In this document: positions 23,907 through 62,876 of the stretch, one piece after another
How the letters are laid out: each line of letters starts with the position of its first letter
Position numbering within the stretch: position 1 is the first letter of the stretch
Source: Actinomycetota bacterium
GTDB lineage: Bacteria; Actinomycetota; Aquicultoria; SURF-47
DNA: 64,000 nt
Direction: 5' to 3'
Assembly: GCA_003599235.1 (NCBI GenBank)
Contig: QZJE01000013.1
Span: 540-64,539 of the forward strand
Program-made: the position numbers and the translations under genes
Notes under the pieces: generated by a model
What the model was told of the DNA's origin: nothing
The model's database searches: none
The model's input: only the letters and a program-made list of their open reading frames with translations

Positions 23907-24000
23907 ACTTACACCTCAAATTAAAGGCTATATTTGTTTAGTTATTACCAAACAGCCTAGTACATTAATTATACCACTTAAGCAGCTTTTTTGTAAATCT

Positions 24001-24022
24001 AGGCACGGGGACCTGCCCCTAC
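24001..24022 (-). repeat. REP-like GC-rich element (GTAGGGGCAGGTCCCCGTGCCT on minus strand)
   Basis: Same GTAGGGGCAGG head as the REPs flanking the RAYT gene at 61.4-62.0 kb. Sits in the carD-divergent intergenic region. Confidence 0.6.
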
Positions 24023-52351: not shown

Positions 52352-52377
52352 GTAGGGGCACACCCCTGTGTGTGCCC
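52352..52377 (+). repeat. REP-like palindromic element GTAGGGGCACAC-CCCTGT-GTGTGCCC
   Basis: GTAGGGG head plus 8-bp stem GGGCACAC/GTGTGCCC. A related GC-rich segment (GGGCAGGCACGCGACAGGCCCCC) follows at 52401-52425. Confidence 0.65.
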
Positions 52378-52428
52378 TCTGTTCTCAAAAACAAACGAAA
52401 GGGCAGGCACGCGACAGGCCCCCGAGGC

Positions 52429-60192: not shown

Positions 60193-61218
60193 TTATTTTC
60201 CGTGACAATTTTGACAAACTCCGCGATTATCTAATCTAAGTAGGGCGGAAAAACCAGGCCCTGAGCTAGGACTGCTTTTTGTGGGTTCAACTTGGGCCAT
60301 CACCGTCATATCAACCGAGGTCCCGTGAGCATAATGGCATGTTAAACACTGTATTTGATTATCGGGATCGCTGTTAGGGGTGGTGCCCGTAGCTTTATCT
60401 AACGGCAAAACAGTATCGTTATTTAGAGGATTTTGAAGCTTCCCGGTTTCATCAGTCATGTCTACGCCAACTCCGTGATGAAAGTTCTCGCCTTGAGTTG
60501 GCTCATTGTAGGTGGTATGGCATGATGCACACCAGCCCGACATTCCTTGACCGGCAGTAGTGGGTGTTTTATAAGGCTGGACACCGGTGTTGCCGGCAGC
60601 ATAAGCCGTATAGTTAGGCTGATAAGTGATAAAGGGCGGTTTTCCCTCGCGTGGCATAGTAATACTTTCAGAGCTAAATCCAGCTTCATTTGAGCTTACA
60701 AAACCAGCAACGTTCACCCCGTTAACTGAGTCTCTAAGAAGGCGGTAGTTTGAACTACCATCAGGATTGTGACAGGTAGAGCAGTTTATAACCATAGTTG
60801 TAGAGCCGCCAAACGGAACTGTGCTGGTTGCGCCATCAATAAGATGAGTTGAGGTTACCGCTTTGCCGCCTACCTGGATAAATCCGCCACCGTTTAAACT
60901 ACCACCAGAAATACCATTAAGAGTGCCGCGATAGACACCGCTTTCCACATCGCAATCAGCGCCTTCGACACTTACACCATGGCAAGTTACTAAACAAGTT
61001 TCATACTCGGCAATAGCATTGGTTTGCATAGAATAAACTGACGGAGCAGTTTCTACTCCTAGCTGCTGCTGTATGGGAACGTGCTGACGGTGGCATCCGG
61101 TGCAGGTATCGGCATTTTTCTCGAATGATTTATGTATACCAAAACCAGCCTGGGCAACAGGCACACAGGCACAAAACACAATAACTGCTGCCAGAATGAT
61201 AATTAAGCGTTTTGTCAT
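60193..61218 (-). CDS. Secreted multihaem c-type cytochrome (five CxxCH plus one CxxxCH)
   Basis: 341 aa. Signal peptide. Haem motifs CTGCH, CLVTCH, CSTCH, CASCH, CLTCH, CQNCH. Confidence 0.85.
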   Translation of the reverse strand: MTKRLIIILAAVIVFCACVPVAQAGFGIHKSFEKNADTCTGCHRQHVPIQQQLGVETAPSVYSMQTNAIAEYETCLVTCHGVSVEGADCDVESGVYRGTLNGISGGSLNGGGFIQVGGKAVTSTHLIDGATSTVPFGGSTTMVINCSTCHNPDGSSNYRLLRDSVNGVNVAGFVSSNEAGFSSESITMPREGKPPFITYQPNYTAYAAGNTGVQPYKTPTTAGQGMSGWCASCHTTYNEPTQGENFHHGVGVDMTDETGKLQNPLNNDTVLPLDKATGTTPNSDPDNQIQCLTCHYAHGTSVDMTVMAQVEPTKSSPSSGPGFSALLRLDNRGVCQNCHGK

Positions 61219-61278: not shown

Positions 61279-61326
61279 GTAGGGGCACACGCAGGATAAT
61301 GGGCAACCACGGGGGGTTGCCCCTAC
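61279..61326 (+). repeat. REP element: GTAGGGGCACAC...GGGCAACCACGGGGGGTTGCCCCTAC
   Basis: GTAGGGG head and CCCCTAC tail form an outer inverted repeat; inner palindrome GGGCAACC/GGTTGCCC. About 110 nt upstream of the RAYT gene. Confidence 0.75.
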
Positions 61327-61391
61327 GACAATTGGTCAAAAATACCCCAATAATTAGGGTTATGTTGTTATCAAAATGTATTTATATTGTC

Positions 61392-61421
61392 GTAGGGGGC
61401 GTATTGCAATACGCCCCCTAC
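61392..61421 (+). repeat. REP element: perfect 30-bp palindrome GTAGGGGGCGTATTGCAATACGCCCCCTAC
   Basis: Reverse complement is identical to the sequence. Ends 14 nt before the RAYT ATG and immediately precedes its RBS AAGGGAG. Confidence 0.8.
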
Positions 61422-61434
61422 CTAAGGGAGATAA

Positions 61435-61992
61435 ATGTTACATAACAGACAATCGATTAGATTAAAAAAATACGATTATTCATTACCAGGAGCGTATTTT
61501 GTGACCGTTTGTACGCATCGTAGACAATTTACATTGGGACAAATTGTTAATGTAGGGGCAGGCCCCCGTGGTTGCCCACAAATGATATTAAATAATATTG
61601 GGCAAATGGTTGATAAAACATGGAATGAAATCCCCAATTATTATCATGATATAAATATTGATGTCTTTCAAATAATGCCCAACCATATTCATGGCATATT
61701 AATAATTGATAAATTAAATGTCCAGACATTATTTAATGGGCAACCACGGGGGGTTGCCCCTACAACAAGGAATTTGTCGTTATCCGATATTGTCCACAGA
61801 TTCAAATCAAAGACAACCAATGATTATTTTAAACAAACAAAACAAAATATTTTGTTGCCAATCAAATTGTGGCAACGTAATTATTACGAGCACATAATAA
61901 GAAGCGAAAAGGAATTACAGGAGACCAGAAAATACATTGCCGATAACCCAATTAATTGGAATATGGATAGGAATAATCCGAAAAATATGTAG
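61435..61992 (+). CDS. REP-associated tyrosine transposase (RAYT; IS200/IS605-like HuH Y1 transposase)
   Basis: 185 aa. YDYSLPGAYFVTVCTHRR N-terminus, HuH motif MPNHIHGIL, catalytic-Tyr region WQRNYYEHIIR. Flanked on both sides by GTAG-headed palindromes. TAG stop lies inside the head of the downstream REP. Confidence 0.8.
   Translation: MLHNRQSIRLKKYDYSLPGAYFVTVCTHRRQFTLGQIVNVGAGPRGCPQMILNNIGQMVDKTWNEIPNYYHDINIDVFQIMPNHIHGILIIDKLNVQTLFNGQPRGVAPTTRNLSLSDIVHRFKSKTTNDYFKQTKQNILLPIKLWQRNYYEHIIRSEKELQETRKYIADNPINWNMDRNNPKNM
61552..61577 (+). repeat. REP-like segment inside the RAYT coding sequence (GTAGGGGCAGGCCCCCGTGGTTGCCC)
   Basis: Shares GTAGGGGCAGGCCCC with the downstream REP at 61989. Encodes VGAGPRGCP in frame. 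Confidence 0.6.
61738..61763 (+). repeat. REP-like segment inside the RAYT coding sequence (GGGCAACCACGGGGGGTTGCCCCTAC)
   Basis: Identical 26-mer to the extragenic copy at 61301-61326; identity extends to 29 nt with the AAT prefix. Encodes GQPRGVAPT in frame. Confidence 0.7.
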
Positions 61993-62055
61993 GGGCAGGC
62001 CCCTGTGCCTGCCCAATATCATAAACATAGGGCAACCGCAGGGGGTTGCCCCTAC
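61989..62055 (+). repeat. Composite REP element: GTAGGGGCAGGCCCCTGTGCCTGCCC - 15 nt - GGGCAACCGCAGGGGGTTGCCCCTAC
   Basis: Two GC-rich arms with GTAG head and CTAC tail. Supplies the RAYT stop codon and ends 1 nt before the stop of the convergent 62057..62338 ORF. Confidence 0.75.
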
Positions 62056-62056
62056 A

Positions 62057-62338
62057 TTACGATTGTTGATCCTCGGCGGTTTCGGAGAGCTCGGAGGTTG
62101 TTTCTACTCCTCCTTCTGTTTCCCAGAGTTGCAGCACTTCCTGGACAGCGGTGGTATCCACCAGCGGATCTTCGCTGACTTTAAACCATTCATCGCCAGA
62201 GTAATTATCAAGGTCAAAGTTACTCATATCGATATAGTTTTCGTCGTCAACTATCATGATAACCTCATTAACAGGATTAAAAAAAGTTCCTCGCATCTGA
62301 GCAATATCATCGGTTGTAAAACTTCTGTCCTTAGCCAT
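62057..62338 (-). CDS. Hypothetical small acidic protein
   Basis: 93 aa, strongly acidic, no recognised motifs. Confidence 0.4.
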   Translation of the reverse strand: MAKDRSFTTDDIAQMRGTFFNPVNEVIMIVDDENYIDMSNFDLDNYSGDEWFKVSEDPLVDTTAVQEVLQLWETEGGVETTSELSETAEDQQS

Positions 62339-62425
62339 AACTCTCCTTCGTCTTGTAGTCTATATTCCCATTTACAGATGTTTAAACTGGCAAGCGGGTG
62401 AAATAATTCAATTGACACAAATAAC

Positions 62426-62449
62426 GTAGGGGAGGGTTTTAACCCTCCC
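62426..62449 (+). repeat. REP-like palindrome GTAGGGGAGGGTTTTAACCCTCCC
   Basis: GTAGGGG head; 9-bp stem GGGAGGGTT/AACCCTCCC. About 20 nt upstream of the RBS of the 62469 gene. Confidence 0.6.
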
Positions 62450-62468: not shown

Positions 62469-62876
62469 ATGATGGATACCAGACAATTTCTTAATAGGGT
62501 TAAAGATGAGGCGTCCCTTCCAGATGACCGGCAGGCTAAAAACATAACCGAAGCCGTCCTTACAACTCTACACTCACGCATTAAGGAAGGTGAGGCTGAT
62601 GATGTGGAAGCTACATTGCCCACTGAGATAAAAGAGTTATGGGAGGGCGACATCGGTCAAAAAATCACCAAACATTTAGGAGCGGTGGACAAGCTTAACA
62701 AAGGTCAATTTATTGCCAGGGTGCAAGACAAAGCCAGGATAGCCACCACGGAGGAAGCTGAGCAAAAGACTAAAGCGGTAATTAAAGTACTTAAGGAAGC
62801 AATCCCTGATGGAGAAGTAAAAGACTTAAGCGCCCAGTTGCCCGAGGACTTGAGGGATTTTGTTAAAGCAGCATAA
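62469..62876 (+). CDS. DUF2267-like conserved hypothetical protein
   Basis: 135 aa. RBS AAGGAGG. Pattern FLNRVKDEASLPDDRQAKNITEAVLTTLHSRI...AQLPEDLRDF recalled as typical of DUF2267. Confidence 0.6.
   Translation: MMDTRQFLNRVKDEASLPDDRQAKNITEAVLTTLHSRIKEGEADDVEATLPTEIKELWEGDIGQKITKHLGAVDKLNKGQFIARVQDKARIATTEEAEQKTKAVIKVLKEAIPDGEVKDLSAQLPEDLRDFVKAA

Follow-up and report, generated by a model that had tools for sequence, protein, structure and literature searches.

A probable subclass 2.4 REP-associated transposase gene with REP palindromes beside and within its reading frame

What kind of transposase gene lies among copies of a short palindrome and also carries two such copies inside its own reading frame? 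We asked this of a locus near the end of a 64-kb stretch of contig QZJE01000013.1, which belongs to the metagenome-assembled genome (MAG) of an uncultured bacterium; this whole stretch is called the window here, and statements about distal and single copies refer to it. A preliminary description, based on the bare DNA letters, had placed a REP-associated tyrosine transposase (RAYT) gene between repetitive extragenic palindromic (REP) elements that begin with GTAGGGG and end with CCCCTAC. All three of the palindromes that it named, at 61279-61326, 61392-61421 and 61989-62055, are present on the two sides of the gene with these ends. It overlooked two further REP copies that lie in frame within the open reading frame (ORF), as well as a stop codon that sits inside a REP foot. 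Our analysis indicates that the locus is very probably a REPtron of TnpA_REP subclass 2.4, or RAYT group 4, in which an HuH/Y1 transposase gene is flanked on either side by its cognate REPs and contains two more of them in frame.

The gene (61435-61992, plus strand), recognized from its ORF, its profile matches and an AlphaFold2 model, encodes 185 amino acids and a stop codon. The protein contains the peptides HIHGIL and WQRNYYEHII and ends 13 residues past a third motif, YIADNP. NCBI has an identical protein, P0001, from a contig of 212,622 bp, under the name "MAG: transposase [Actinobacteria bacterium]". Profile searches confirmed the HuH/Y1 identity proposed earlier: Pfam Y1_Tnp (PF01797) scored 32.3 bits against a cut-off of 23, with only residues 112-170 aligned, and the best-scoring family was NCBIfam NF047646 (REP_Tyr_transpos), with 51.3 bits over residues 114-174 only. 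The N-terminal half of the protein is broken up by REP-coded inserts. The IS200 equivalog NF033573 reached 23.8 bits against a cut-off of 55, below the score of REP_Tyr_transpos. The AlphaFold2 model, made with 24 homologs, has a mean pLDDT of 80 and a pTM of 0.77, and the top 30 matches in a Foldseek search against the PDB are all either IS200/IS605 TnpA proteins or the Escherichia coli TnpA_REP (4er8). The latter gave the best match (TMq 0.57) and was also the sole match in a profile search of PDB sequences.

Key residues of the fold are readily located on the plus strand. The HuH codons H84-I85-H86 (61684-61692) lie within an N83-H-I-H motif that is invariant in the alignment of 24 homologs. 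Further along, W146-Q147...E152-H153...R156 (61870-61902) aligns to 4er8, and these residues are spaced exactly as the E. coli GTAG contacts W94, Q95, E100, H101 and R104; the W146-Q147 pair is invariant. The Y motif, YIADNP (61933-61950), aligns with YIYINP of E. coli, and its Y167 and N171 are invariant and P172 nearly so. Because YIADNP is the Y motif and WQRNYYEHII matches the GTAG-contacting residues, we take Y167 as the presumed catalytic tyrosine and WQRNYYEH as the presumed GTAG-recognition motif. The presumed catalytic tyrosine thus lies outside the two peptides quoted in the preliminary description.

The subclass assignment follows from a published division of the family. Quentin, Siguier, Chandler and Fichant split the TnpA_REP family into subclasses (BMC Genomics 2018, 19:475; PMC6006769), of which subclass 2.4 is group 4 of the RAYT classification by Bertels et al. 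(2017; PMC5581495). Proteins of subclass 2.4 have the motifs NH[IFV]H, WQ and YIxNNP and a median length of 194 amino acids, are without a conserved C-terminal tail domain, and carry an insert between β3 and αC that varies in length and sequence; W94, Q95, E100, H101 and R104 (E. coli numbering) are conserved among them (PMC6006769). Their REPs are of two types: in the "long" type the stem foot has three G-C pairs, and the "double foot" type is bounded by GTAG and CTAC. They occur within ±1 kb of the gene, and in-frame REP insertions in tnpA_REP itself lie "generally" between HuH and Y (PMC6006769). These two REP types and the in-frame insertions are described there as what marks out the subclass.

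The locus resembles this description in nearly every respect. N83-H84-I85-H86 fits NH[IFV]H, W146-Q147 fits WQ, and YIADNP fits YIxNNP except for an aspartate in place of asparagine at the fourth position. With 185 residues the protein is close to the usual length of about 190, and it has no C-terminal tail domain. The variable insert after the HuH motif, residues 92-115, contains the REP-coded segment G102-T110 in frame. Long REPs lie at 61301, 61989 and 62030 and a double-foot REP lies at 61392-61421, all within ±1 kb. The patchy spread over many phyla and the low genomic REP number are further likenesses. The window differs from the subclass in the aspartate of the Y motif, in a first in-gene copy that lies upstream of HuH at the tip of a β-hairpin, and in a host MAG labelled Actinobacteria. 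We assign the window protein to subclass 2.4 by its motifs and REP types.

The REP unit of the locus consists of GTAG, an 8-bp stem that starts with GGGCA, a 6-nt loop (CCCYGY) and the second stem arm. GTAGGGG occurs 15 times in the window, nine times of these inside 61279-62432, whereas chance would give 4.9 ± 2.4 occurrences in the window; the 22-nt REP core has seven matches, compared to 0.01 expected. Upstream of the gene, sequence, repeat search and folding resolve a composite element (61279-61326) into two parts, a truncated REP head at 61279-61295 and, after it, one complete long REP (61301-61326, minus strand) with GTAG, the 8-bp stem and the 6-nt loop. This REP matches the core with 0 mismatches and has the same sequence as the copy inside the gene at 61738-61763. 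The outer arms of the composite, GTAGGGGCA and TGCCCCTAC, can pair, and its predicted fold as single-stranded DNA (ssDNA) is a modest one (-10.5 kcal/mol, z -2.2).

The element closest to the start codon is the double-foot REP, GTAG...CTAC, at 61392-61421. As reported earlier for the 5′ end of the gene, it is a perfect 30-bp palindrome, with two 15-nt arms that are 100% complementary; about 6e-5 such palindromes would be expected by chance in 64 kb by our own arithmetic. Its predicted ssDNA fold has an energy of -14.4 kcal/mol and a z score of -7.3. On the other side of the gene lies a REPIN-like REP dimer (61989-62055) of two inverted 26-nt units, with REPs at 61989-62014 (plus strand) and 62030-62055 (minus strand) and a 15-nt spacer between them, for which the ssDNA fold is predicted at -23.5 kcal/mol (z -5.5). 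The dimer also provides the end of the protein: the REP at 61989-62014 contributes the last three bases of its GTAG foot as the stop codon (TAG, 61990-61992). The ORF ends inside a REP GTAG foot likewise in 8 of 74 homologous ORFs. Since the stop codon comes from the REP foot, the C-terminus of some RAYT proteins has been set by REP insertion.

The preliminary description also raised the possibility of a regulatory role for the 30-bp palindrome. From its end to the A of the ATG (61435) there are 13 nt, and within this gap we read a Shine-Dalgarno-like AGGGAG (61425-61430, plus strand), 3 nt past the palindrome and 4 nt before the ATG. The only promoter-like match upstream, at 61325-61354, is weak (9/12); if it is used, the palindrome would lie in the 5′ untranslated region (UTR). 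Sequestration of the ribosome-binding site by the palindrome was rejected, as both the Shine-Dalgarno sequence and the AUG are unpaired in the predicted centroid RNA fold.

Within the ORF, repeat searches identified two REP copies, both in frame. Copy 1 (61552-61577, plus strand) encodes V40-P48 (VGAGPRGCP), placed by the model at the tip of a β-hairpin between β1 and αA, and is found in 8 of 24 close homologs. Copy 2 (61738-61763, minus strand), which also matches the REP core, encodes G102-T110 (GQPRGVAPT) in what the model predicts to be the loop joining the HuH strand to the next helix, with a predicted hairpin energy of -8.6 kcal/mol. The low-confidence stretches of the AlphaFold2 model, residues 41-50 (pLDDT 63) and 91-110 (pLDDT 47 for 101-110), coincide with these REP-coded segments. 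The two copies are inverted relative to each other, with 93% complementarity over 28 nt, and the 158 nt between them include the HuH-coding segment. As ssDNA, the stretch that spans both could fold into a long-range stem of 28 bp (-53.7 kcal/mol, z -8.2).

Copy 2 is also closely related to the upstream REP. The segments 61297-61331 and 61734-61768 are identical at 34 of 35 nt, and this identity runs past the REP by 4 nt on the 5′ side and 5 nt on the 3′ side. Comparison of the two segments suggests either that one was recently copied between gene and flank or that the unit which moves extends a little beyond the hairpin.

Are in-frame REPs particular to this gene? We compared 80 loci from 80 species of many phyla, collected with no bait other than the HuH and WQ peptides and not including the source MAG. 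The ORF could be delimited in 75 of these loci, on which the hairpin counts rest. A GTAG-footed hairpin lies inside the ORF in 62 of the 75 genes, and the hairpin density is 2.6 per kb in the ORF, 1.1 per kb within 500 bp of it and 0.08 per kb farther out. The sequence of the in-gene hairpin varies by lineage, but the hairpin sits in the same loop, past the HuH strand, and encodes peptides such as VGAQHAAPL, VGAKNFSPL, VGAGLKPAPT and RGVLQYAPT. RGVLQYAPT represents the core of the window's own 30-bp palindrome, found in-gene in the RAYTs of two loci (L042 and L043). In 28 of the 43 loci that have both kinds, the in-gene hairpin is at most two edits from an extragenic hairpin of its own locus, compared to a median distance of seven edits to the hairpins of other loci (p = 3e-5).

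The two closest homologs with DNA available, L081 (3500-4898; 60% identity) and L082 (3500-5089; 52%), have kept their in-gene REPs, and we found no flanking REPs at either locus. This shows that in-gene copies can outlive flanking ones. The in-gene copies of L082 show decay, as their feet have mutated to GTCG and CCAC.

REPs have also left their mark on the length and the annotation of these proteins. Partial REP units are tandemly duplicated in several RAYT ORFs (L002, 4584-5285; L006, 9980-10570; L037, 9854-10726) and in the database protein P0016, producing the repeated peptides GQPREINN (three times), GPCAVPK (four times), RAGLE (eight times) and GQPQGVN (four times). The length range of the family, 172-294 amino acids, results from such duplications. 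Three database homologs (P0009, P0010 and P0023) have N-terminal extensions such as GGCPYAGNE and VGAGPCACPLCCPY; because these extensions are translated upstream REPs, their start codons have probably been mis-called.

Is it the peptide or the DNA that is maintained in these loops? In the 15 genes whose in-gene REP encodes the peptide G-Q/H-P/A-x-G-x-A-P-T, third codon positions at synonymous sites within the REP have an entropy of only 0-0.35 bit, compared to 1.5-1.9 bit, or saturation, at four-fold sites of invariant residues elsewhere in the same genes. Synonymous freedom resumes at the first base past the CTAC foot. Among 20 distinct in-gene 26-mers, stem pairing is kept in 96% of cells, and compensatory double changes occur in five of the eight stem pairs, a level not reached in any of 500 shuffles or in any slid register. 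Because synonymous sites are frozen and stems covary, we conclude that the DNA hairpin is conserved and that the peptide follows. GQPxGVAPT was therefore rejected as a conserved functional peptide, its conservation being at the nucleotide level and ending at the REP foot. The fold and motifs of the protein, the REP anatomy, the in-frame REPs, and this DNA-level conservation with its stem covariation are shown by these analyses.

How far have these REPs spread? Outside the RAYT island, the window contains a single intact REP (52352-52377, plus strand; -8.9 kcal/mol), whose stem variant GGGCACAC/GTGTGCCC is compensated. About 23 nt farther downstream is GGGCAGGCACGCGACAGGCCCCC, a degenerate partner in inverted orientation, so that 52352-52425 looks like a decayed REP dimer, and another degenerate copy is found near 24000-24022. 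Beyond the window, the exact 26-mer GGGCAACCACGGGGGGTTGCCCCTAC occurs in at least 120 metagenome contigs (L083-L202) from very different environments. Among the matches listed, from which the contig of the window itself is absent, it often occurs together with GTAGGGGCAGGCCCCTGTGCCTGCCC, and 11 of 133 copies lie inside RAYT-like ORFs; ORF classes here are naive stop-to-stop ORFs, and copies classed under other ORFs are mostly intergenic or annotation noise. Because the 26-mer is present in at least 120 contigs and mostly outside RAYT genes, it represents a widely spread REP family. This one REP sequence is near-unchanged across many organisms. The core of the 30-bp palindrome, among 202 fetched loci, is present only in the two RAYT genes mentioned above, and viral contigs do not contain the 30-bp palindrome. 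The palindromes thus do form a dispersed family, as the preliminary description supposed, on the evidence of the distal copy, the metagenome contigs and the two RAYT genes, but dispersal within this genome is only weakly indicated. RAYT genes as a class occur once per genome and have a cognate REP family scattered through it; the 64 kb of the window contain one RAYT gene and one intact distal REP. Such sparse dispersal fits the low number, about 14 copies per replicon, reported for 16-mers that flank group 4 genes (Bertels et al. 2017, PMC5581495).

By analogy with the enzymes of E. coli, Stenotrophomonas maltophilia and Marinomonas, a mechanism can be proposed for the locus. The RAYT protein would bind REP hairpins formed on ssDNA, reading the GTAG foot with W146, Q147, E152, H153 and R156 and holding Mg2+ with H84 and H86. 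Cleavage would take place beside the hairpin, at a nearby CT, through a covalent link between Y167 and the 5′-phosphate, and rejoining of the strands would copy or rearrange REPs. The in-gene REPs would then be copies that landed in two permissive surface loops, the β-hairpin tip and the loop past the HuH strand, and that stay close to genomic REPs through re-insertion or gene conversion. We infer that the enzyme acts on the REPs of the locus and that the copies inside the gene are neutral. Most simply, the in-gene REPs are passengers, a reading we share with Quentin et al., who regard the region of the insert as distant from the active site and the insertions as tolerated (PMC6006769). It agrees with the varying copy number, site and frame of the in-gene REPs and with their tandem partial duplications.

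E. coli TnpA_REP, also known as RayT or YafM (PDB 4ER8; subclass 2.2, group 2), is one of the systems that come closest to the locus. It shares with the window protein the HuH/Y1 fold (the Foldseek match noted above), the W-Q...E-H...R residues with identical spacing, a catalytic Y-I-x-x-N-P motif and flanking REPs with GTAG. Sequence identity is only about 20%, and the E. coli protein has DHLH, WE and a C-terminal extension. Its REPs, unlike those of the window, have bulged stems, number in the hundreds and are not found within the gene. In-frame palindromes in tolerated surface loops are known from intragenic REPs in housekeeping genes (Di Nocera et al. 2013, PMC3733652) and from Rickettsia palindromic elements (RPEs). 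In contrast to both, the host gene here is the presumed mobilizing enzyme, and the loop is filled family-wide.

Several observations weigh against our assignment of the locus and the passenger view of its in-gene copies. The 51.3 bits obtained with REP_Tyr_transpos fall short of the equivalog cut-off of 80, and published RAYT biochemistry comes from groups 2 and 3 only, with none from subclass 2.4 or group 4. Copy 1 has a chimeric stem with one mismatch and one G-T pair, and a predicted energy of -5.1 kcal/mol. Just one intact REP lies in the remaining 62 kb outside the island, so that any current mobilizing activity in this genome is hypothetical. Finally, frozen synonymous sites and covariation fit recurrent replacement or gene conversion, and they fit selection on the hairpin equally well.

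This last point bears on what the in-gene REPs are for. They could be selected cis-elements, forming an ssDNA or mRNA hairpin for autoregulation or self-marking of the RAYT, or serving as protected "master copies" that link enzyme and substrate. We regard this as rather unlikely, despite the RAYT ORF being the densest REP site, about 30-fold above the far flanks, one loop position being filled in 62 of 75 genes over many phyla, synonymous sites being frozen right up to the CTAC foot, compensatory stem changes that alter the peptide and keep the hairpin, and the long-range stem possible between the window's two copies. The hairpin is missing in 13 of the 75 homologs, the varying copy number, site and frame and the common tandem partial duplications are what unstable neutral inserts would show, and the copies in L082 are decaying. 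Repeated insertion or gene conversion from genomic REPs would give identity at the DNA level without selection, and Quentin et al. view the region as off the active site and tolerated (PMC6006769). If cis-element selection were true, the protein loops would be subordinate to a nucleic-acid element recognized by the encoded protein itself. A different objection concerns activity: the RAYT and the nearby REPs may be relics of a past burst or a horizontal acquisition, with the enzyme domesticated or idle and no REP action here. We find this doubtful but worth serious consideration. An intact ORF with all catalytic and GTAG-recognition residues speaks against it, as do the near-identity of the upstream REP and copy 2, which argues for recent copying, and the well-formed stems of the downstream dimer; in its favor are the few distal copies in 62 kb (one intact and one degenerate), the low copy number of flanking 16-mers in group 4 (PMC5581495), the truncated upstream element, the chimeric copy 1, and the closest homologs without any flanking REPs.

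Two further explanations would take the locus out of the RAYT class altogether. An autonomous IS200/IS605-type insertion sequence, with the flanking palindromes as subterminal hairpins, would share the fold, the Pfam family, HuH and the single catalytic tyrosine, as seen in the TnpA proteins of IS608 and ISDra2, and hairpins do lie on both sides of the gene. Recognition of ssDNA hairpins and use of a 5′ guide tetranucleotide by these enzymes may, by analogy, be counted as a likeness too. However, TnpA of IS200/IS605 (subclass 1.1) has the motifs DH[VI]H, W[TS] and Y[IV]ENQ (PMC6006769) in place of NHIH, WQ and YIADNP, and the IS200 equivalog score is far below its cut-off. Such elements are autonomous and multi-copy, have a Y...Q motif and often carry tnpB, none of which is seen at the locus; the window contains one RAYT copy, and we found no tnpB in it. 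The hairpins have the REP-typical GTAG foot and stand alone elsewhere. We rejected an IS200/IS605 identity on motifs and on copy number in the window and give it next to no credence. It is only slightly less improbable that the palindromes are ordinary terminators or regulatory hairpins that lie beside the gene by chance. Two terminator-like minus-strand matches fall inside the downstream dimer, between convergent genes, and the 30-bp palindrome is in the likely 5′ UTR. Chance placement would not account for identical sequences within the ORF and at the distal site, for GTAG/CTAC feet on all palindromes, or for matching REP types beside RAYT homologs across phyla, and the plus strand is without proper T-tracts. 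A secondary role as terminator or stabilizer is compatible with the REP explanation.

Around the RAYT island, we made several observations on the host and its genes. A distinct GTAG-footed hairpin, GTAGGGGAGGGTTTTAACCCTCCC (62426-62449; -8.7 kcal/mol, z -3.4), precedes an ORF at 62469-62876 by 20 nt; this hairpin is single-copy in the window and without a CTAC foot. The island is bracketed by paralogous multihaem c-type cytochrome genes, at 60193-61218 and from 62928 to beyond 64000, both on the minus strand, which share the C-terminal sequence CLTCHYAHGTS...GVCQxCHxK. The host is a MAG of 40% G+C that NCBI labels Actinobacteria, and its gene content is unusual for that label.

Having weighed these alternatives, we view the locus as an ordinary further example of the described class of REP-associated transposases with intragenic REPs, and as an addition from an uncultured bacterium to a catalogued RAYT class. 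It is a compact test case, since one small gene brings together every REP arrangement known for the class: the long REP on its own, the dimer, the double-foot palindrome and the pair of in-frame copies. The comparison with homologs sharpens the question raised by the "tolerated insertions" of Quentin et al., for it is the hairpin that is conserved rather than the peptide, and repeated re-insertion, gene conversion or selection for function are all candidate causes. The main value of the locus is thus as a case for asking why enzymes carry their own substrate within their genes.

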